The notes beneath the pieces were generated by a model that made no database searches, was not told where the DNA came from, and worked only from the letters and a program-made list of their open reading frames with translations. A stretch of 64,000 bases of DNA from Cyanidioschyzon merolae (taxonomy: Eukaryota): NCBI GenBank assembly GCA_000091205.1, contig AP006502.2; one strand, written 5' to 3'. Below, one piece after another: positions 8,695 through 61,153 of this stretch (positions within the stretch are counted from its first letter, which is position 1; each line of letters opens with the position of its first letter). The translations under genes and the position numbers were made by a program.

Positions 8695-9763
8695 CAGGTG
8701 CTTTTTCGCGGTTTTGTAGCGGTTGCGGTCGAAGTGCGTTCATTTTCAAACATAAGATACCCTAGGGAAAGGTGCGGACATAAAATTCGGGGAACTTGGA
8801 GGGCGGCATTGCTGGGTTCTACAAAAAACCCGAAAGAAGTCCATGTTCTCGCTGACCCGCGCGCGAAGCAGAGCGAGTGACGGACAGGAAGAAGAAGAAG
8901 AAGGAGATAGAGGAAACACTGTTTGCCTGACAAGTCGATGACGAGACTGCATTAGCACAGAGGGTATGCGTTCGAGGAATCCTTGCAATATTGAGTTCCC
9001 CTAGAGGCAGTGCATGTAAGGAGTTCGTAAACCTGAACGCTAACGCTGCTTCAAGTATAAGACGACGTGCTGTGCTGAGGACGAAACTCGAGGACCTGAC
9101 GCGAACCAGCATCGTCGGGCAGCCTCTCAGGCTCGAAGTATGCCTCGATAAACCGAAATCGATAGCAGGCGGCCAGTCAAAACAGGCTGGAAGGCGTCTG
9201 CGAGGGCGTAGATATATATAAACGCTCCATCGTCGTAGGGTGTTTACGAATGACTGAACGCTCAGATACTGCAGCAGCGCGTGCAGCGCATTCGCGGCAG
9301 CGCACACGCATGCGCAACGGCGCGACGATGCAGGCGCGCACATCGATCCAGTGCGTTGTTAGCGGACTGCCATACGCGGGCATCGAACACCAGCGTGTTG
9401 CCGGCGTGCACGATTCCTGTAGGCAACTTGCGGTAGCGACTGCCGCCTCGAGAGTGCAGCGGAGGAGATCACACACATAAATGTATTCCATTGGATTGGG
9501 GGTTCTCGGCGAGAAGGTAACCTACCGTGCAATCCATTCGAGATTAGAGGCTCTTCGTGCAACAGTCTCCGCAACCGGCAAATGCGCTACGGACATCGAG
9601 GGGCAGGGCGCTTTTCGCCAAGGTCTGTGCACCCGTAATGATAGTATCCAGCACCAAACAATCCGCGTGTGGAAGACGTCGTCCCCCAGGCCGGATGTCT
9701 CTCCGAAAGCAGAACCCTTATTCCCATCATTTCCTCTAGTCGTGGAGCACTGGTTTTGCTGGA

Positions 9764-25843: not shown

Positions 25844-26817
25844 GCTTCAAAGTATATATGTCAGTCTATGAATTGAACTATATTACCTGTGTTAAAGTGA
25901 ATTTTAGCACCGTATGTTACGAGCAGTCGCGAAAGCTCCACACACGCACACACACAACCGTTGTATACCGAGCGGAGCAAAGAATTCGAGCCATTCGTGT
26001 GATGCGACGCAGCATGCGCTCGCCCGCAGCCGCTCGCCCGCAGCCGCTCCGTCGTGCGCATGCCGCGCCGCATCACACGATCCCAGATGTGACCGATCGC
26101 GGCGAACGACGTGACATCGATTTCCTTCCGATTCGATAGGGCGTGTGTCCGCTGACCACGGATCCAGGACTGCGGGATGGATGCAGGTACTCGGGGAAGC
26201 GTGCATCATGTTGCACTCTAATTTCGATTACCGTTAAGTTCTCTTGGGCGTGCGGGCCGTTTCGTACGTTCTATCTTGAACCGAGTGCCTGCCGTGCTGT
26301 ACCCATCATAGCACCGAGACCGCTGGCACGGATGCCGTATTGAGAAAGCACGCGGTATTGCGCGAATACTGAGGGTGTCGGCTCGATGCCATGATTCGTT
26401 CAACGCGGCACCGCAGTGCATAATCGTGCCGGGAGCCAGCAAGCTGTGCATGCGGACATCCTGTCTGCCGACGCGCGGAGCGATATGCTACGAGTCCGCT
26501 GCGACCAGGGCGACGCCCAGACGCAGCGTAACCGTCCCTAGTGCAAGAATAAAGTGCGATGCCGACGATTTGCTCAGGTATTGCCACAGCACGCGCCACA
26601 GAACAGAGCGTGAAACACGAGTCCAACAGACTTGGACGCTCCGCGGGACCTAATACCGAGGAGGTAAACTCTCGAGAATATGGAAAACCTTTTCTTCCTT
26701 CCACGCTACCGAGAAAGCGAAACGAAATTATGATACGGTTGCTAGTCAGTGATAAGTTTCTGTTCTTTCCGCACCATACTGCATCACAGGGATGATGCGT
26801 GCGCAGCTACGAGCCAT

Positions 26818-26990: not shown

Positions 26991-27095
26991 CTTGGAAGTA
27001 CGGCGTGGAATGATGGGCGCTTTCCCGGAGGCCGATACCCATCCAGCCCGCAATCTGGGATCCATGGTCCATGGGAACGTTTTGTCATCGAAAAG
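26991..27095 (+). repeat. Conserved non-coding element, copy 1. Its ~60-bp core is ~85% identical to 33495-33553.
   Basis: Both copies share the core cccgcaatctgggatccatGgtcCatggGaaCgttttgTcatcg. This copy lies ~245 bp upstream of the DDX3/Ded1 ATG and contains the ATG of a 66-codon upstream ORF (27071..27271). Confidence 0.7.
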
Positions 27096-27338
27096 AAAAA
27101 TCCGTCGCTGCAGCGGCGGCGACGGCGGCGACGGCGGCGGCGGCGGTGCCCAAACGCGCCCCCGCGAATCGCGTTACCGTTTCACAATCGCTTCTGCAGT
27201 CGTTTGTATACTGTGGAGAGAATACTGACGAAAATGCCAGAAGAAACAACATCAACAGTGTAAAGGAATGATCATAACGAGCAGAGGGATACGAGGGAGC
27301 GTCACGGTTCAGAAAGGGACGCCAGAGACGGCGCAAAG

Positions 27339-45664: not shown

Positions 45665-46591
45665 TCATGCTAATGGTTCAATCCCGCCATTGCGTTGCCA
45701 AGTATCCACAATCTCAACGGTTAGTAAAACTAGCCGCGTTGACTGGTTCAGAATCGCAGACTCTAAAGGAGACCTCTGGCTGGTTGAAGTCCCGATCGAG
45801 GTACCGGGCGCCTGGGGCATCGACTTGAGCTGCAGCTGCTGCTCCAGACGTATTCGAGCGAGATCATAGCCGGCTCGTGCTGCATCTACAATGGACTGCA
45901 CGAAGCGATCAAACTGGTCAGGAACTCGGAACTCCTCCGTGATCGCTCGATTCCGACTGGACTGTTCAGACGGGGCCTCCGGCGGCATGCGATCGCGAGG
46001 AAAGTTCACATAGCGAAGCACCTTGAAGACCAGCGTTAGCCATATCGTGCGCAGCTCTACTTCATCAGCTTCTAGTGGACGAGGGAGTTCGCCACTAGCG
46101 CTTCGGTTTCCAGAACGAAGTGACTCGGCACCGACGCGGCGGAGCTCGATTTCTAGCGCATCCAGCGAGTAACCAAGGCGGTAGGCCCGAACAGTGGAGG
46201 CAATAAACGACCGTAGTGCAGCAACATACGGCACGCCACTTTGCGGTAAGCATGCGTTGAGAAACGCCTCGTGGATGGCTCCCGCCACCCCGTTGACGTC
46301 ATCGTTCTCAGCGGCGGAGGATAACACCAGCCGATAGACTACGCCGCGAGGTGACGCAGATTGGTGCAGTGCTTTCCGGTGGCCTCTCCAGTGTAGCTCG
46401 GCGCTACCGAAGCTTGGCACGAAAGCCCCTGGTGCCAACGGGCAACCCATACCTCCAGATAAAGGCATCAGCTGAGTGCGTAGCGTGCGTTGCGGCAAAG
46501 CGGCAACCCGTCGGCCTCCAGCGTGCAAGTGCGTTCCTGCCGCTGCAAATGAAGCCGTTCGTCGTAGCGTGCTCATTGCAAAGCAGAGCAT
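45665..46591 (-). CDS. Hypothetical protein (308 aa) with an S/T/R-rich N-terminus that may be an organelle presequence.
   Basis: The ORF is long with balanced composition and has no recognisable motif. Confidence 0.35.
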   Translation of the reverse strand: MLCFAMSTLRRTASFAAAGTHLHAGGRRVAALPQRTLRTQLMPLSGGMGCPLAPGAFVPSFGSAELHWRGHRKALHQSASPRGVVYRLVLSSAAENDDVNGVAGAIHEAFLNACLPQSGVPYVAALRSFIASTVRAYRLGYSLDALEIELRRVGAESLRSGNRSASGELPRPLEADEVELRTIWLTLVFKVLRYVNFPRDRMPPEAPSEQSSRNRAITEEFRVPDQFDRFVQSIVDAARAGYDLARIRLEQQLQLKSMPQAPGTSIGTSTSQRSPLESAILNQSTRLVLLTVEIVDTWQRNGGIEPLA

Positions 46592-47841
46592 TGGCGGTAC
46601 ACCCTTTCACGTTTCCGTTATCGCTCTTAGCAGGGACAGCAACTCCACGCAGAAGCTGCGAAGCAAGCAAGTACCCGCTGTAGCTCAAGGCGGACGCCAG
46701 CGCTCGACGCGTGCCTCGGGATCTTCGCACGCGCGCCTGCGCTGCCGTTGGGCAGCCGCAGGTCGCTTATGATCGATGGTTTTTTTCGATGACAAAACGT
46801 TTCCATGGACTGCGGAAAACAGATTGCGGGTAGGTAATGGCAATCGAAGAAGCGTCCATCATGGTGCTACGCCCTATCTAAAAGTTCTATTACTTATAAT
46901 TCCCTTCGGATGAAATGGTCGTTTCGTGCGTTCTCTCTTTCGCCGAGTGCCTACCGCGAGCACCCGCCGTCGCGCGTATACCGCTGGTGCGCATGCCCCA
47001 CCGAGACAGAACCGCCTTTCTATGCTACTGAGGGCGTCCGCTCGAAGGATGATTCACCTGACACAGAATCAGGGCTCATTATCATTCTGGGAGCCTGCAA
47101 GCTGCGAGGCAGATATGCCGCTTGGGGCAGAGCGAAGCGATACACTAGGAGTCTACCGCGATCAGGACGACGCCCAGACACAGCATCCCGCTCCTAGTCT
47201 CCGAATATACTGCGCGTTGACGAGTTGCTCAGGTCTCGCTAAAGCACCAGCTACTGCAGAGTCGCATGAAGCACGAGTCGGGGAGACTCGTCCGGCTCGC
47301 GGGACCACCTGCCAATAAGATAAACTTTCGATAATATGGAAACCATTTCCCCTTTTAACGGTTATCGTTGAGGGCTGCGCAATTTTCATCATGTTGCTCG
47401 TTAGTGGTTCGTCTATGTTCTTTTGTCTGCAGCGCAGTCCATACGCGCACACCCGTATCTTGTAGGCATCAGACAAGACGCGTATCAGGCGGTTGAAAGG
47501 AAACGCGATCCTGACCATGAGCTTGTAGCTCTATGGTAAAAGACGTATTAGGGTTGAAGACGTAGCAAAGTATAGTGTTTTATCCCAATTGTGCTCCAAC
47601 ACTCAAGATAGTGTATTCATGTGATTTTTCACGGTTTATAGCAGAAGCGTTCGAAGTACGTTCTTTTTCTAAAAATAAAAATAAAGTTGTGGAAATAGAA
47701 GTGGAAGATCCTGGAGAGCTGGTATCCCCGGTTGCCGGAAACAGACGAATAACATTGCGGAGCAAAGAGGAATCGGGGAAGACGAAGAAGCAAAAAGGGG
47801 AGGCCCGACGCCGAAAGCTGCAAGAAAGACGATAATGCGAC

Positions 47842-49551
47842 GTGATGGTGGTGAAAGCCTGTCTTCTTAAACATATCAAGGATCCTTACAGGGAAAAGTT
47901 GCGAGACGCTATCAGAAACCGTATCGACTCGTACTCCAAGAGCATCGTCAAGGCGTCGTCAGGTCTGATGCATTTGGCGAGGGGGATGTATCGCGACGTG
48001 AAGCACATGGAAACAGTCGAGATTCCGGACGAGTTTTTCGATAAGACCTTTAGTCGTCAGCTGATGTTTGGCACAGGGGAAGCTCCGAGGGAAAATGAGC
48101 GAATGCATGCCCTCCACGAGAAACATCCCTTTTACAGGTTCGAGGGTAATCGAAACAAGGGGGACTGGGGTATTTACGACAATGGGGCGATGAAGTACCT
48201 CACGAATCTGAAAAACCATTTGACAGTGAACCTCGAACGTTTCATGATACGCGCCGTGTTTGCGCTCCACCCGGGCATCTCTCGCAATGGAAAATGGGCG
48301 ATTATCAGTGGCATCATGAAAGATCGCAAGCATGAAGACGAGATCGAATTTGTCGGAGAAAAGGCGTCAAACGAGAGCACGAGTGAGGATTCCGTCATCC
48401 GCGCGGTTATACAAGAGCATCGTGCAGTCTCGGGGCTGACGAACCCAGCAGAAAATGTATTAGATTTGAAAAAAGATAAGGAAAGATACTATCGCCTCGT
48501 CCTGCGCTATTTCGTGTTTTTGGACCGTGAACTCGAATGCAAGGCAGAGATGAAGCTGAATGGGACAAAAAATGAAGATTCGGGGAGACGGAAGGCTGCG
48601 CTTCTGGGTAAGCGCTTCAACGTCGTTCCGTTATGCAACATCAAGTCACATTTTGACACCATCGACTCCAGAATCGCTCACGGCAGCATAAAGGAGATCA
48701 GTCCGGAGTTCGATGTAAGGAGGACAGAGTTCACTGGTGGAAACCGGGAGACGTACTGGAAGAACATCTTCAATTTCAAACGGCTCAAAGTCAGCAAACA
48801 AAAGGTATTCACTGGGATGATCGAAAACAATGGGGTAGCCATGTGTGTCCACTATCGGCGGTCGAAGGTGGATCGCCCAATCGTGCCTTTCGCTTCGCCC
48901 TCTGCGAAGCATGAAGAAAGCAAAGAGGCGGATCCTGTGATGCAGGAGGTGCAGGATAACGACTCTGTCGTTGGCGCGGACCCGGGGAACACGAACATCG
49001 TAACCATCGCAGTACCCAAGCACGGGGTATATGGTAACGACGGCAATTTACGTCAGAAAGACATGCGTCTTTTGAGAATCTCGAGAGCGAGATGCTACCG
49101 AGAATCCGGTATAATGAATGTGAGGAAGAAAATTTCTGCATGGGATGCAGGAATGAAGGATCACCTGGAAGCCACGAGCGCGGTGACGAGCCGAGAAGCA
49201 GACTTTAAAGCTTTTCGGAAATTCGTGGAAGTTCGTGTTGCGCATTGGGATGCCCTGTGGGAGGAGTATACCGAGCCCAGATGGGCTCGTTTGCGTATGA
49301 ATCTATACTGTGGAAAGCAGCGGGCGTTCGCGAATTTTTTCAATGAGTTGAGCGCCTTGAAGGAGGATGAAAATCAGAGGCTAGTAGTAGCATACGGAGC
49401 AGGGCGATGGACGACCCAAAAAGGGTGTACACCAGCTCCAACGACGAGGGTGTACAAGGAGTGCGCACGGCGTTTCGTTACGAACCCGGTAGATGAGTTT
49501 CGAACATCGTATACACACCATGAACTGTGGTGTACACTTCAGAGGGTCTAG
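47842..49551 (+). CDS. Fanzor-like protein (eukaryotic TnpB/OMEGA-family RuvC nuclease homologue). This is the main ORF body, and it is interrupted at the C-terminus.
   Basis: A ~380-aa N-terminal region precedes the RuvC-I-like motif [16 protein letters not shown], whose Asp codon is at 48979-48981. Near the end, [15 protein letters not shown] resembles the TnpB TS-x-C zinc-finger lead-in. The ORF ends at an in-frame TAG (49549-49551). An in-frame TAA at 47833 separates it from an upstream 86-codon ORF with a K/R-rich NLS-like tail. Confidence 0.7.
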
Positions 49552-49763
49552 ATGGAAAAGTGTCCGGGGAGCCCCGAGGATATAGCAAAGTACGGACCGC
49601 TGACAGACGAGCAAATGGAAAGGATAACGAAAGTGCGCAGGCTACTTGCATTAGTGAGTAAACTCCTAACGGCACGAAACAGGTGGAGTTTGTGAACCGA
49701 GACTTGAACGCCGCTATCAATGTAAGGAGATGTGCGGTACTGGAGAATAGACCTCCAGACTAA
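49552..49763 (+). other. Displaced C-terminal segment of the Fanzor/TnpB-like gene carrying the RuvC-III motif. It reads as either a pseudogene tail or an exon after short introns.
   Basis: In the frame of positions divisible by 3, codons 49683..49763 read VEFVNRDLNAAINVRRCAVLENRPPD*, with RDLNAAINV being the canonical TnpB/Fanzor RuvC-III motif. It is separated from the main ORF by the TAG. A 29-nt GTGAGT..CTAAC..AG element (49654-49682) would splice frame 1 into this frame in phase. Confidence 0.6.
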
Positions 49764-50020
49764 ACAAGAGGGAACTTTGATGGACAATTCTGAAAGTTTT
49801 ACTATATGAGAAAAAGTTGGAAGCAGTTGTGGGTGGCCGGTCGAACAAGTCTGGCAGGCGTCTGCACATCAGTTGGAGACGTTTCGTTTAGGGTGTGTCG
49901 TTCGCCACTACTGTACACTGCCGGCAGCATCGTTCGACTTTAGATAGGCGTTTGGTGTTGGCTGCGTCTTAGACCTATAACGAGGCAGACCGATACGAAG
50001 CTCGGTGAAAGGAGCCGTTT

Positions 50021-51781
50021 ATGGGTCCCGCCGCTGCTCAGCCGCCACAGCTGGCGGCGCACGGACTCGACGAGAGCGGCTCGTTCCGGGACTCGGGCAC
50101 CGGCGTCTTTGAAGACAGCTACACTGCACAAGGCGGTTTCGCAGAGCTTAAAGCTCAGCCGCTGTCGGAAGCGTCGATGCCTCGACGTAAACATCAGACT
50201 GAAAGAGGAAAACTTGGCCGAGTAGACGGATTGTTCGAGGAGGCGCCCCCCGGTGACTCGGTTGTTATAGATACCGTCACTGCAGAAAACGGTTCCAGCT
50301 CGGCACGTAGGAGGTTTGAGTGGCGGTTGGCACTCCGTAAGCTCGGTCCGGCTTTTCTAATCTCAATCGGGTACATGGATCCGGGAAACTGGGCTACGGA
50401 TATCGAGGGCGGCTCACGTTTCGGCTATCGGCTGCTGTGGGTGCTGGTTGTCTCCAACGTCATGGCGTGGCTGCTACAAACGCTTGCTTCACGCCTGGGT
50501 ATCGTGACAGGTCGCCATTTGGCACAGCTGTGTCGCGAGGCGTATCCGCGCATCATCGCGATGACGCTGTTCGCGCTCGCCGAAACAGCGATCATCGCTA
50601 CGGACCTGGCGGAAGTCATTGGAACGGCCGTTGGCTTGAATTTGGTCTTGGGTATCCCGCTCCTGCTCGGTATCCTGGTGACAACGCTCGACACGCTCCT
50701 GCTTCTGATGGCACAGCGTGCTGGTGGGCTACGTCGGATCGAACAAATTGTCCTATCTTTGTTATTCGTCATCACGATATGCTTCGCATTGGAGCTGGTA
50801 TTGAGCAAACCCAGTTTCATCCAAATGATTGGAGGGCTGGTACCGCGTATCGACGGGCAAAGCCTTCTGGTTGCTCTAGGTATGTTGGGCGCGACGGTGA
50901 TGCCGCACAATTTCTACCTCCACTCCGCCATTGTGATTCGTGATGCGACTGTGAGGCGCCCTGCCGACTCGTGCGTGTCCACGTCGGCGACACGCACGGC
51001 AGACGGGACAGCGCATAACGGACACGACTTGGCAGGCTGCACTGATGATTCGGATCGCGGGCGCGAACTCGAGTGCGTCTATTCAGCGATCGACTGTGCG
51101 GTTGCGCTGAATGCGGCGTTCTTTATTAATGCGGCGATTCTTATCACAGCGGCATCCTCTTTTTGGGCGAATCACGTGCAAGTGGCGACCTTGCAGGAAG
51201 CACATGCCCTTTTAGAGCGCGTGCTACCCATTCGTCTCTGGGGTCGCGTGGAAGTTGCGCCGCTCGTCTTTGGGATCGCTTTGATCGCAGCAGGCCAGTC
51301 AAGTACCATCACCGGAACACTCGCCGGCCAGTATGTCATGGAGGGCTTTCTAGGACTTTCTCTGCAGATGTGGCAACAGCGATTACTGACGCGGCTATGC
51401 GCGGTCGTGCCGAGCGTGCTGGTTATCATCCTACTTGGGCCCGAGAGCACCTACAGGCTCTTAATTCTTTCCCAGGTAGTTCTATCGCTTCAGCTGCCAT
51501 TCGCGATTGTGCCCATGATTCGATTCACTGGGAGCAAGGCACTCATGGGTGAGCGGTTTGCCTCGGGAATGTGGACTCGTATCTGTGCCTGGTGCGCTGC
51601 TGCGTTCATCATCGTACTGAACCTGTGGATGGCTGGCTCGATGCTCTTCGATGCCTTCCGGGTGCAGTCTGGTCGAACTGCTGGCGCAGTCGTTGGCGGT
51701 GTTCTCGCCGTTCCGCTCACCATCTATCTTCTCGGTGTACTGGTCTGGCTGTGTATGTACAGAGGGTTTAGAAATGAATGA
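50021..51781 (+). CDS. NRAMP: NRAMP-family divalent metal transporter (MntH/DMT1-like).
   Basis: The NRAMP motifs are IGYMDPGNWATDIEGG and MPHNFYLHSA. The ORF has about 11-12 TM helices and stops at TGA. Confidence 0.9.
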   Translation: MGPAAAQPPQLAAHGLDESGSFRDSGTGVFEDSYTAQGGFAELKAQPLSEASMPRRKHQTERGKLGRVDGLFEEAPPGDSVVIDTVTAENGSSSARRRFEWRLALRKLGPAFLISIGYMDPGNWATDIEGGSRFGYRLLWVLVVSNVMAWLLQTLASRLGIVTGRHLAQLCREAYPRIIAMTLFALAETAIIATDLAEVIGTAVGLNLVLGIPLLLGILVTTLDTLLLLMAQRAGGLRRIEQIVLSLLFVITICFALELVLSKPSFIQMIGGLVPRIDGQSLLVALGMLGATVMPHNFYLHSAIVIRDATVRRPADSCVSTSATRTADGTAHNGHDLAGCTDDSDRGRELECVYSAIDCAVALNAAFFINAAILITAASSFWANHVQVATLQEAHALLERVLPIRLWGRVEVAPLVFGIALIAAGQSSTITGTLAGQYVMEGFLGLSLQMWQQRLLTRLCAVVPSVLVIILLGPESTYRLLILSQVVLSLQLPFAIVPMIRFTGSKALMGERFASGMWTRICAWCAAAFIIVLNLWMAGSMLFDAFRVQSGRTAGAVVGGVLAVPLTIYLLGVLVWLCMYRGFRNE

Positions 51782-55294: not shown

Positions 55295-55840
55295 AGCGGG
55301 CCGAGCATCGCAGGCAGCGCAGCAGGCACCGGGGCCGCGAGATCACCACGGAGGAGGCGCGGAGGCGCGGAGGCACTGCCGCTGTACCTGCCGCTCGCGT
55401 CTCCGCGGCCCAGCAGCGGATCGCGAGGCGCGGCTGCCTGCTGCGCAGCCTGCGCTGCCAGGATGCTACACCACATCGCTGCGTCCACGCGTACCTGTCC
55501 GGGTGCGCGTATCATCATGCTTAGGACCAATGAATGGACCTCATTTTCTCCACAGATGCTCCAGCGTCCCATACAATCCAGATGCGTCTTCTCCCCCCGG
55601 AGGGGGGGGGACGGTTGCAGACCCCTGATGCATCCATGAACACACCCGATATCGAGCCTACTGCGGCTCGTGTCGATGAGGATGGCGCAGAGGTCGGCCT
55701 CAGAGGCGGCAGCTTACGTCCGGGAGTGGCCTCCAGAGCTCCTGGCCTGCAGCGGCATCCGCTCGGTGCGCTCCTCGCCAGCCTGTCGGCTATGTACCGA
55801 TCGGCGGCGCGCCCGGGGCGCCTCGAGCGCGATCCGCCGC

Positions 55841-55880
55841 TGCTGCTGCCTGCTGCTGCCTGCTGCTGCCTGCTGCTGCC
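55841..55880. repeat. (TGCTGCTGCC)4 tandem repeat in a GC-rich intergenic region.
   Basis: Read directly from the sequence. Confidence 0.9.
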
Positions 55881-56503
55881 TGTTCCTGCAGCGGCGGCGG
55901 TGCGCGCCGCTGTGCTCGCGGCGGCATCTCGCCGAGCGTCGCCCCGAGCACAACCGATGCGCGCGTGCGCAGCAGTGCCACGAAGCGGACGACGCAGGCA
56001 TCATACGAGAGGATCGACTTTGTGGCATTACTGTTTGTTGCTCAGAGCGTGCTTCTTGCGTATCTGTACGTTTCGAAAGCCTGCATTACACACCGACACT
56101 TTTGAAGCATGTTTGTGAACGGCTCACTTTCAGTAAAGGTCAAGAAGGGAGCAGCTTCAGCATCAGTGGCACGTGCCGCAGCGCACACGCGTCGAACAGC
56201 TGGTGTCGCTACAGCAAAGCGTACAGGTGCTACGCGTTCGCCTGTGCAAATGGTTCTTGCTCCACACGTCGCGCAGCCGCTGGAGACAGTGGTAGCTTTT
56301 GCGAACACACAAAGTACCAGCTTGCTCACAGCAGCAAATGAAAGCGACTTTGGCGGTTATTTCATTCCGGCGATATCGCTCATCATACTCGGTGCGATTA
56401 TCCTGGCGCTCTCGCCACCACTGCGTGACTAGGGCGTCGGAACGTAGCCGAGCGGGCCTGGTCATCGCGTTTACCGGGTGATGCGTATGGGATAGTTTCA
56501 GTT

Positions 56504-57829: not shown

Positions 57830-60800
57830 GGTGCTTTGCGGACGTCACCGTTCGCAAGGGTTTCAAAAGTCGGCGTCGCTGGCCAGCACCCAGGAACACC
57901 GCAGTCAAACGCGCCACCGGATGCTCCAGTTGATATTCAGAGAGCGCGCCCTGAGTACTCTGTGGTCGTAAGCGTCGATTCTGCAGCGCAGCACGCCACC
58001 CCAACGTGTACAACGTGTGTGAAGCGACTTCACGTTGCAGTACAACGGAGCGCCTGCAAGAGCACAGGTTCAAGTAGGCAACGCAGTGCAGCTGCCGACT
58101 TGCCGCAACGCAATGCAGCGCGACGTGCCGAGTCTGACGGCGTTACAGCCAGCGTGTTGCTGCTCAAGCGGTCCTCGATGCACTGCCTGCTGGAATACCT
58201 TTCCATGCAGGTCCTTCTTGTTTTTCGTTTGGTTTTCTCGCAGGTACTCACTGAAAGGAATTTATTGGGTTGCTTGGGGAAAAGTTGCGTAAAGACTTGA
58301 TCCTGTAAATACTAGCTTGCGAAGACGCAGACTCATTTGCACAAGTCAGCAATTCTGCGGGCAGCACGTGGATGACGCACCCTGTTCGTCGACGTTATCC
58401 TGAACGCCGCGCACTCAAAACATAACCTGTGGAACTCTATGTACACGGCCATCTCCTCGTCCATACATGCTACTCGAGACGTTTTCTACCGAATAATACT
58501 AGAGAAACCACAGGTACTGAAGTGTCCACAACATTGAAACGAACGATGACGAAGGGACACCGATGGAGAACGGAAACAGGTGCGCTTCTGCTGGAGATCG
58601 TCGTGCGTTGAGCAACAAACGATCGATGTCGCACTGAAACGCGATCGCTCAGTCCAACACGAACGAGTTTTCGACTCAGTCTACGAGACCTCGTTGGGAG
58701 AAACGCCAGACCGATACATGCGGTACTCCAAACGGGCTAATCATCTGACCGAATCGGAGAGACAAGCGAGCGTCTCGAAAATGTCATTCCGAGCGGCGAT
58801 TCAATCGACAGGTCACCTGTGAAGCGACAAGCGATCTTTTCTGTTCAGCAATGCGTCCATCATCGAGGCGGCCCGGTGGCTTCTCCGCCGCGCATTCCTC
58901 TGTCTCGCTCGTACACATCGTCGCTTTCCATCATTCACAGGCGGTGAACGAGTACGCAGCTCCGATTCGCGTTGAACCGGTCGTCGTGTTAACCTATTCT
59001 CTCAGGTTCACTTGACTCGAATGCATCGTGTCTACTGTAGCAACGCCATTTTGACGCTCGCGAATCATTGGATGAGTCACTCGCATCCGTGGCACCGTTC
59101 TTCGACAAGTGGTTCGATACCTTCACCAGTCTTGGACTGGTATATTGCCGGCCTGCTCGTGGGCCGGAAGGAGCGAAAAGATGCACTCCGGTCCATGGCC
59201 GTGCACGCAACGGAACAGGTGACGAAAAACTGCATGTGAGGAAGTTGAGATACATGCACGAAAAAGGCGAGTTTCGGTGCTACTGCCCAACCTGCGCATC
59301 TGAATCCCGAGTGAAAACGGATATTGGATAGATTCAGCACATCCATGCAAACCGGCTGCGCAAAGGAACAGATGAAGAAGGTGGCGGTAACTACGAGCAA
59401 GTATGATAAAGCCTTTGCACAATTTTGTGTGCAGCATTCGCTTAGCTCGTTCAAGGGTTCTCGTTTAAAGTGAGAATATGGAAATAAGTTGGCGTGGATG
59501 ATGGAGACCGAGGGGATATCCATCCGCACGCACTCTGTTCGACCGAAGCCAATGTCGAGGAACGAGACCCCTCGTCCATCGTTCAAGCTTGAGGAAGAGA
59601 ATGACGCTTTCGTGAGCGTGCTTCTCGGATTTCAGGAAATAATCGCCGCCACCCCACCTCTGTATGAAGACAACGGAGCCAGAAACCAGAATGGAAACCA
59701 CATGAAGCTGCTCAAACATTGACGGGACTCGTTATGATCGGGGATCGGTCACGATGACCCCCAAGAGGCATGCCCGCAGTAGAGTGAGCGTGCCAAGACG
59801 CATGCCGACGCCCTCAGTACAGCACCGGGCAGCGGCAGATGCCTTGCGCCCTGCATTCAGAGAGAGCACACACACGAGCGCTCAAACGAAGCATGCGGAC
59901 GACGTATGCTGGGCGATCATGAGACCGCTCGGGATTCGTCAACGATGTCGATTTTACGGATGCAGGAAGCAGGTATTCGCCAAATTTTCGAATGTGTCGG
60001 AGACGGCAATGACGAACAAGTTGGATCGTTTCGTGGCAGCCTATGGCGCTGGACGCAGTGTGACGCCCAGAGCAGCACTCCTGTATCTTCGACGAGCGCG
60101 TACACCGAGTGCTGGAATCGATGGTATACGATTCCTGTCGATGCGCTCCCTAACGACATACACGCATCACAGCGACGGATGCACACACGGAAACAGACGG
60201 ATAAGAAGAGACGGAAATCGACATGGACACACGAAACGCTGGGCGGTAAACTCTGACCGAACATCAAATGGCGAAGCACTCGAAAACGAGGCGCTCGCGA
60301 TGGTGTAACACGACCAGCAACCCGACGTGCAAGCATGTTCTGCGTACCCCGAGACCTGAGCGCCCCGCTCAACGCCTGCAAAAGTATCGTACGTACGGAG
60401 CGCTCAGCAGGTTTGTTTCAAGCGATACTTCGAAGGCATCGCACAGTGCATCGTGCGGGCATTGTGCTAGAACGCCGATGACTTGCGATGGAACGAGTCA
60501 GTGGCCAGAAGCGAGAGCATCGGATTCTTGCCTTGAGCAAAGCACGCGCATGGTACGGTTCAGGTATCCGTGAGAAAGGCCAAAACGCGCGGCATATACG
60601 TCTACATGGATCGGGAACGATTTTCCCGGTCAATAGTTGAACCATGATATTGTTCCGGTATACGACACCAGCGAGTCTATGAAGCTTAGAATCTATGGAT
60701 GTACGACGGAGCAAGCATGCATATCCGAAGACGCGCCCAGGTTACCATCGAGAGCAACTCGGCCGAGTGCCAAGTCAACCGAATACGTCTGCTGCAACAC

Positions 60801-61153
60801 GAACCTCCGAGAGACGCCCTTCACGTCAAGATTCGAAGCTGCTGCTGCTGCTACTGCTGCTGCTGCTGGTAAAGTATGTTCAGCGCGAATCACCAACGCC
60901 TCCGCTTGCCAACGCTCGCGTCGAGCAGGCAGTCATCCGGCCCTGGAGCAGCGGCTGCTATCGACAACGCCAGCAGTTCTGAAGCAGCTCCATAGTGAAT
61001 TCAGCTTTACGGGTCCTGGGCTACATCCGTAATCAAGTCACCGAGGGGGCGAGTTTCAGGTGCAAACGATCACGAAACGCGTCGCTGCCGGCACCAGCGT
61101 CGCGCATGGAACGAAAGCGCTCCACGTAAACCTTGCCCCAGCTTGCAGCGCTA

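Follow-up and report, generated by a model that had tools for sequence, protein, structure and literature searches.

A conserved, structured tail at the right end of a dead Fanzor1 transposon copy in Cyanidioschyzon merolae, a candidate guide-RNA scaffold

The locus and its transposon

We have analyzed a stretch of 64,000 nucleotides (the window; all positions count from its first base) of GenBank contig AP006502.2, which belongs to chromosome 20 of the red alga Cyanidioschyzon merolae 10D. Our subject is the interval 49552-50020, located between the remains of a gene for a Fanzor1 nuclease and the gene for a manganese transporter, NRAMP. A first-pass annotation of this DNA had placed there the boundary of a transposon and, with it, a candidate scaffold of the guide RNA (omegaRNA or fRNA) of the nuclease. 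The interval holds the 3' end of a dead copy of the transposon CMe-1A, from here on copy A, and the comparison with known systems suggests that the last 77 nt of the element would probably act, in active members of the family, as the scaffold of a Fanzor guide RNA.

CMe-1A has been described as a Fanzor1 transposon of C. merolae with ~150 copies, each ~80% identical to the consensus, a length of ~3 kb, no terminal inverted repeats (TIRs) and undetermined target site duplications (TSDs), whose 635 bp at the 5' end are a separate repeat, TE-N2_CMe (Bao & Jurka 2013, Mob DNA 4:12; Repbase). The element found here has the same host, is ~3 kb long, contains a Fanzor1 open reading frame (ORF) and a TE-N2 5' module, lacks TIRs and has copies that are ~80% identical. 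Since host genes, copy number, identity, length and 5' module all agree, copy A (46780-49968) is an ordinary member of CMe-1A and not a variant, and both the element and its protein were already known. What our analysis adds is the right end to within a few bases, the true stop codon, the structured tail of 77 nt and a Fanzor core (47432-49968) that occurs without the TE-N2 module. A literature search linked Cyanidioschyzon to Fanzor or TnpB guide RNAs nowhere beyond the 2013 description of CMe-1A.

Eight of the ten long ORFs of the window encode proteins identical to those annotated in strain 10D, among them the products of the two host genes that enclose the element, NRAMP and CMT178C. The start of NRAMP at 50021, as first annotated, is confirmed by a product of 586 aa identical to BAM83173.1. 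The 3.2 kb of the element fill nearly all the space between these divergent genes, leaving 189 bp to the ATG of CMT178C and 52 bp to that of NRAMP. We searched for empty sites through the orthologous NRAMP and CMT178C loci of related strains, and every contig reaching upstream carried the element. The insertion is therefore common to all the related strains examined, and both host promoters must work around the element or from within it. The GC content is ~49-50% between 47 and 50 kb and 49.3% over the whole element, lower than the 56.6% of the window. The description of 49763-50020 as AT-rich thus says little, because its GC content (49.2%) is just that of the element, and the tail proper reaches 55.8%.

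Table 1. Features of copy A and of its host surroundings (positions in the window).
Feature	Position	Strand	Basis
CMT178C, host gene upstream of the element	45665-46591	-	identical to annotated protein
5' module of copy A (TE-N2_CMe), ~635-650 bp	46780-47431	+	similarity starts at 46780-46792, module ends at 47423-47431
Left end of the Fanzor core with subterminal palindrome/hairpin, family forms GCGCTCAGTGAGCGC or GTGCGGTCGATACGCGCAC	47432-47465	+	copies without TE-N2 start here
Fanzor1 pseudogene, family consensus frame, ancestrally ~760-800 aa	47611-49891	+	frame of the 43-copy consensus open to RRFV and stop; tblastn of the consensus covers 47611-49888
Premature stop TAA (consensus CTG, Leu), near N-terminal basic stretch (possible nuclear localization signal)	47833-47835	+	comparison with 43-copy consensus
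Premature in-frame stop TAG (consensus GAG, Glu)	49549-49551	+	comparison with 43-copy consensus
1-nt deletion, frameshift	49660	+	comparison with family alignment
RuvC-III motif VNRDLNAAINV, now out of frame; catalytic Asp codon 49701-49703	49692-49724	+	translation and copy alignment
Stop TAA, mutated from consensus TCG (Ser)	49760-49762	+	comparison with 43-copy consensus
Decayed C-terminal coding tail, family form …NFxGQPLKVELYEKKLEAVVGGRSKKTGRRLHVSWRRFV	49763-49888	+	homologous proteins and consensus in frame
Second 1-nt deletion, frameshift	49787	+	comparison with family alignment
Ancestral stop TAG, common to most copies	49889-49891	+	copy alignment and consensus
Stem-loop 1, family GGCGGG-loop-CTCGCC, 6-bp core; copy A keeps 4 contiguous pairs	49892-49906	+	~80% of alignment cells paired
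Single-stranded linker ACTACTGTACAC	49907-49918	+	near-invariant over 42 copies
Stem-loop 2, long hairpin at the right end, degraded in copy A	49916-49962	+	single-copy folds, covariance-model alignment, sense/antisense test
Right end of the element, exact base uncertain within the range	49962-49968	+	BLAST ends, conservation drop, closest tail (L080)
Host DNA, would-be guide on read-through, TTAGACCTATAACGAGGCAG	49969-49988	+	analogy with SpuFz1; no conservation among copies
Host NRAMP (manganese transporter) gene, outside the element	50021-51781	+	Pfam Nramp match, E=4e-115; exact match to BAM83173.1

Ends of the element and decay of its gene

To compare copy A with its relatives we scanned metagenome contigs of related hot-spring Cyanidioschyzon populations, which provided 79 loci with copies 75-84% identical to it at the DNA level. 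Forty-two of them had unrelated 3' flanks and were counted as independent insertions. In nearly all the full-length matches from the 79 loci the BLAST similarity to copy A stops at 49950-49968, and the column conservation falls from 0.84 (49890-49919) to 0.75 (49920-49949) and 0.43 (49950-49979). After the motif GGCGTT.G. the subfamilies share 8-13 more bases and then diverge, and copy A and the closest tail (L080) agree as far as the CGTC at 49968. We therefore place the right end at 49962-49968, that is 52-58 bp ahead of the NRAMP ATG; the 52 nt from 49969 to 50020 are host DNA. The boundary, and any scaffold with it, falls inside 49552-50020 as anticipated, well after 49763. A right boundary at ~49868, suggested by aligning three relics of the window (A, B and C), was discarded, as the 42 closer copies remain similar through 49950-49968; it is an artefact of B and C being older and more diverged.

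At the other side, copies without the TE-N2 module start at ~47432 beside unrelated flanks (L008, L015, L021 and L054), and in L003, L009, L023, L038 and L050 a second, different shared upstream repeat adjoins the core. Many copies beginning at this point, we take 47432-49968 as the core unit of the Fanzor element. A search for TIRs or direct repeats around the element found just short chance matches. The published CMe-1A appears to be composite, because many metagenomic copies consist of the core without TE-N2 and the ends of TE-N2 are unlike those of the core. The palindrome at the left end of the core differs by subfamily (the two forms in Table 1; loci L003, L008, L015, L021 and L054). CA stands before it in most of the independent contexts and TA in the TE-N2 class. 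The sample is small; the CA recalls the conserved CA that precedes the left end of SpuFz1, the Fanzor1 of Spizellomyces punctatus, and its CATA target-adjacent motif.

The gene itself is a pseudogene. The longest open stretch of copy A (47842-49551, 569 aa) contains the motifs GADPG and VDEFRTS. The three catalytic motifs, RuvC-I DPG, the RuvC-II Glu in (V)DEFRTS and RuvC-III RDxxxxxN, are all found in copy A and in a majority consensus built from 43 copies, although in copy A the RuvC-III codons, already recognized in the first reading of the sequence, sit 3' of a premature stop and a frameshift. The 569-aa ORF had no match in Pfam or in a single-sequence search of the PDB, and a search of a large protein collection gave 57 protein relatives. 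A profile of seven family members matched the Fanzor1 of Parasitella parasitica (9CF0, E=5.4e-11) over RuvC-I and RuvC-II/III.

The first-pass annotation ended the gene at the TAA of 49760-49762, which does exist but is a mutated serine codon. Homologous proteins run beyond this point (…RPPESTRENFLGQPLKVELYETTLEAVVDGRSKRTRRRLHLGWRRFV…), and the frame of the consensus stays open and ends …GRRLHVSWRRFV at a stop that aligns with 49889-49891. The corresponding stretch of copy A (49763-49891) reads, in shifted frames, ...TRGNFDGQ(frameshift)LKVLLYEKKLEAVVGGRSNKSGRRLHISWRRFV and stop. Of the ~260 bp that had been considered non-coding after RuvC-III, about half is thus decayed coding sequence (49763-49891), and the non-coding part of the element is just 49892-49968. 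Nor is 49552 the 3' end of the gene; it is merely the codon after a premature TAG. Conservation over the C-terminal half (49773-49831 included) is lower at third codon positions than at the first two, and therefore this C-terminal tail has been protein-coding and under selection in active lineages. Counting three premature stops and two frameshifts, the nuclease gene of copy A is dead. Two other explanations of its broken frame were rejected. An intron at 49657-49685 (GTGAGT...CAG) is out because the other copies all read through (…LVSTTNDGKKRMEFVN…) and copy A is just one base short. A reassigned, sense TAG is out because the family ends its own frame with TAG and the consensus has GAG at 49549.

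Among the copies fetched the best preserved is L015 (2075-4408), with 778 aa open that include the N-terminus and the three RuvC motifs; its frame is closed solely by a CAA-to-TAA change ~35 codons ahead of the normal stop, which makes it a candidate for reconstruction. Just 5' of RuvC-I there is a tandem repeat of ~25 aa (48899-48981; L001 5431-5651; …KHEEKKEADPATQKVQDND…) of variable copy number, with one unit in copy A and three or four in L001, L002 and P0001, that upsets the consensus frame locally. Between RuvC-II and RuvC-III (consensus, ~49510-49660) the zinc-finger region has the pattern E-x6-HHELGC-x9-C...RGLLAL (THHELGC…EKC…RGLLALVS) and not CxxC…CxxC, matching the pattern of Yoon et al. 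just approximately; the distant relatives P0052, P0056 and P0057 keep …LLWC.S… there. Judging from these residues, zinc binding may be altered or lost in the CMe-1A Fanzor.

Other traces of the family are scattered over the window. At 33554-31226 (minus strand) there is a relic with a TE-N2 module (33554-32903) and a heavily decayed Fanzor, its RuvC-III and tail at 31486-31226, and at 8943-9218 (plus) a 3' fragment that keeps just the last ~95 codons. A very decayed Fanzor-like stretch (23-30% aa identity) is located at 59450-60185 (plus), and solo TE-N2-like copies at 26255-26692 (plus) and 27047-27097 (minus). The low-GC patches of the window at 30-33 kb and 58-60 kb overlap element relics. 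Arrays of (GCT)n/(CTG)n with 10-13 units (55839-55889 and 60838-60868) bear no relation to the Fanzor element.

Structure of the 77-nt tail

The 77 nt that follow the ancestral stop are all the non-coding DNA that the element has at this end. They are conserved in the 42 independent insertions and finish where the flanks diverge. A short stem-loop 1 is followed by a linker and by a long stem-loop 2 (Table 1). The arms of stem-loop 1 are conserved, in contrast to its loops, whose sequence and length vary (TTT, TCA, CCGGT, GTTGC and others). Stem-loop 2 can be illustrated by L021, CACCGTTGGCGCCGTTCG-ACTTT-CGAACGGCGTTGATGGTG, and between its 3' base and the divergence of the flanks there are 0-10 nt. 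Over the 42 copies the mean folding energy was -29.0 kcal/mol for the sense strand, -23.8 for the antisense strand (Wilcoxon p=1.8e-6) and -24.5 for shuffled sequences, with sense-strand z-scores averaging -1.39 and 14 of the 42 below -2. The asymmetry between strands is due to the many G·U pairs. On an alignment made from sequence only (MAFFT), 70.9% of the cells were paired, against 39-56% when the partners were slid. RNAalifold predicted on this alignment just three pairs of stem-loop 1, owing to register shifts and indels in stem-loop 2.

We also built a covariance model on the proposed structure and re-aligned 52 tails to it. On this alignment, which is fitted to the model and leans its way, 72.4% of the cells were paired (35-60% with partners slid), the covariation score was 0.156 against 0.124±0.007 (reached by none of 500 shuffles), 16 pairs had changed on both sides against 10.9 (3/500 shuffles) and there were 48 extra pair types against 40.2 (2/500). 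Cognate arms of the hairpin also paired better than chimeric ones (-18.9 vs -16.6 kcal/mol, 0/5000 permutations).

A number of results weigh against reading this structure as a guide-RNA scaffold. On the MAFFT alignment covariation was no higher than in shuffles, so that its significance is confined to the alignment that favours the model. The gain of the cognate arms rests on a few types of apex and is gone within the main one (p ~0.11), and the basal helix of stem-loop 2, taken alone, shows no difference between cognate and chimeric arms; few independent compensatory events must therefore underlie the advantage. The 3' arms are rich in G and T and able to pair promiscuously. A scan of 46500-50500 with Rfam 15 (E≤10) found no omegaRNA or fRNA family, and its lone match, to CRISPR-DR41 at 49289-49317, is due to chance. 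At the level of the gene, the frame is not open throughout in any of the 81 loci L001-L081, and hairpins at the end of a transposon could serve transposition instead. Tails that by eye looked "compensatory" at the base of stem-loop 2 have been dropped, as the arm test of the basal helix gives them no statistical support. In sum, the tail has a conserved, sense-specific hairpin potential, and the evidence from covariation is moderate, depends on the alignment and comes from few independent events. The scaffold proposed in the first-pass annotation hence survives in part. There is a conserved, structured, sense-specific segment adjoining the right end, where Fanzor1 scaffolds lie, with hairpins found family-wide, but it spans just ~77 nt and is decayed in copy A, and the search for covariation and for known families gave the mixed outcome just described.

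RNAalifold also predicts helices that reach into the coding tail, the main one between CAGTAGT (49825-49831) and ACTACTG (49908-49914), plus three hairpins in the model. In the well-aligned region 87.5% of the cells of this extended model are paired, with 12 double changes against 5.3 in shuffles. However, third-codon (synonymous) sites inside the extended helices are no more conserved than those outside (p=0.21), and the very high conservation of 49800-49829 is due to first and second codon positions, that is to selection on the protein. A scaffold extending into the coding sequence is thus kept as an unproven possibility, and we prefer the 77-nt model.

In copy A the tail has decayed along with the gene. 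According to the covariance model 8 of the 24 modelled pairs are broken or non-standard, six of them among the 18 of stem-loop 2, the 5' arm of which also carries a 3-nt insertion, and the folding energy of the tail is no better than that of its shuffles (z=0.02). With gene and stem-loop 2 both decayed, copy A is an inert fossil and cannot be a working system.

Within the window the covariance model matches 49884-49974 alone, with no ghost or solo scaffold elsewhere. In the metagenomic loci it found second tail-like sequences 5' of the main Fanzor copy (L038 826-916, L039 994-1084 and L011 644-732) and a tandem duplicated tail (L019 743-807), which could come from elements nested or lying side by side, or from solo ("ghost") scaffolds.

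Function of the tail and comparison with known systems

We consider it probable, by analogy, that the tail provides the guide-RNA scaffold of the Fanzor in active members of CMe-1A. A sense-strand transcript of the tail would fold into stem-loop 1, the conserved linker and the long stem-loop 2. Read-through into the flanking host DNA would extend the scaffold by ~15-20 nt, and this extension would be the guide, directing the nuclease to cut sites that have lost the element. The analogy is a reasonable one because the position of the tail, its size and the order of its parts match those of the solved guide RNA of SpuFz1.

The alternative that has most in its favour is that the hairpins are signals in the DNA for a transposase of the HUH type, of the IS200/IS605 or Helitron2 kind, and not a guide scaffold. 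The element has no TIRs and no visible target duplication, its core has a palindrome or hairpin at the left end too, with a sequence that differs by subfamily, and other Fanzor1 genes are carried on hairpin-ended Helitron2 elements. The strand-specific folding would fit a hairpin in top-strand DNA equally well. On the other hand, the helices are rich in G·U (G·T) pairs, which favours RNA, and the size and layout of the tail match a solved Fanzor1 guide RNA. The non-autonomous TE-N2_CMe, with ~70 copies, does without the tail, and the model sees no tail elsewhere in the window. In addition, no transposase is known for the family. As for the hallmarks of such hairpin-ended elements, sequences able to form hairpins occur at both ends of the core, while no transposase gene was seen and no asymmetric TIRs were recognized by eye. 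On balance we regard a transposition signal in place of a scaffold as unlikely, but the two roles are not mutually exclusive. A combined version would have the core as an element without TIRs or TSDs and with hairpin ends, in which the right-end hairpin would be at once transposition signal and stem-loop 2 of a ~77-nt guide RNA, the dead tail possibly acting also as promoter or leader of NRAMP; taken as a whole, this chain of assumptions appears improbable to us.

The remaining explanations rank below these. The tail could be an ordinary 3' untranslated region (UTR) of the Fanzor mRNA, concerned with termination, 3'-end formation or stability, and in copy A perhaps now the promoter or leader of NRAMP. 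It does follow the ancestral stop codon directly, and its right end is as close as 52 bp to the NRAMP ATG. All the related strains examined carry the insertion, so that the host gene works with the element in place. Still, a near-invariant linker of 12 nt and two hairpins that end exactly at the boundary, in copies that have diverged by ~20%, are unexpected for a UTR, and we think this very unlikely. The structure could finally be due to chance, the tail being neutral relic DNA conserved by common descent alone. Copy A folding like its shuffles would agree with this, as would the non-significant covariation on the sequence-only alignment and the negative tests on the basal helix and the synonymous sites. 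Neutrality does not account easily for the asymmetry between sense and antisense found family-wide (p=1.8e-6), nor for 71-72% of cells paired against 35-60% in the slid controls. Variable loops between conserved complementary arms, and a hairpin whose base coincides with the end of the element, are also hard to obtain this way. We consider it the least likely of all.

If the tail is a scaffold, the compact design with two stem-loops of SpuFz1 and PpFz1, the Fanzor1 of Parasitella, would extend from fungi to a red alga. An unclassified transposon family, described in 2013 without TIRs and with undetermined TSDs, would gain defined ends. C. merolae grows at ~45 °C and low pH, and a Fanzor from an alga living in heat and acid could be of interest to developers of genome editing. 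If the hairpin were in fact dual-purpose, the coupling of ends and guide in the style of IS200/IS605 would have survived in a thermoacidophilic red alga, and the near-intact members would be a naturally heat-tolerant eukaryotic RNA-guided nuclease. For the annotation of the locus, the end of the Fanzor relic has to be moved to 49968 and its ancestral stop to 49891, with NRAMP starting 52 bp past the end of the transposon.

Beyond CMe-1A itself, the closest known systems include those of other Fanzor1 nucleases. The omegaRNA of SpuFz1 has 88-90 nt, of which 75 nt are scaffold; the next 14-15 nt, past the right end, are the guide (Saito et al. 2023, Nature 620:660; 8GKH). In the solved complex a short 5' lead comes first, then stem-loop 1, a 6-nt linker touching RuvC, a long stem 2 with a dispensable distal part and finally the guide. 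In the three solved Fanzor1 complexes stem-loop 1 has 7 bp; SpuFz1 and PpFz1 have one more stem-loop ahead of the guide and GtFz1 has more stem-loops. Likened by described layout and size, the modelled tail of CMe-1A has the same order as SpuFz1 and PpFz1 (Xu et al. 2024, Cell; 9CF0), that is stem-loop 1, linker, stem-loop 2 and would-be guide, and from stop to right end its tail has 77 nt against the 75 nt of the SpuFz1 scaffold. The proteins of PpFz1 and CMe-1A are related by profile search, and in SpuFz1 as in CMe-1A the left end tends to come after a CA. There are differences as well. The core of stem-loop 1 has 6 bp instead of 7, the linker 9-12 nt instead of the 6 of SpuFz1, and the zinc-finger region reads HH..C...C where SpuFz1 and PpFz1 have CCCC. 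SpuFz1 elements have inverted repeats of 30 nt and CMe-1A has none.

In this last respect CMe-1A is closer to the TnpB systems of IS200/IS605 and IS607. Their elements have hairpin ends and lack inverted repeats and target duplications, as may be true of CMe-1A, with its hairpin-forming end sequences, no TIRs and no visible TSDs. The 3' part of their nuclease gene encodes the guide RNA (omegaRNA or reRNA), which reaches as far as the right end, as would be the case here. A stem-loop flanks the guide in TnpB systems as it would in CMe-1A, and this guide-flanking stem-loop is conserved from TnpB to Fanzor1. No transposase of the TnpA type is associated with CMe-1A. The scaffolds of TnpB differ in their greater length, in a pseudoknot and in their overlap with the coding sequence; the helices of CMe-1A that would make such an overlap are weakly supported.

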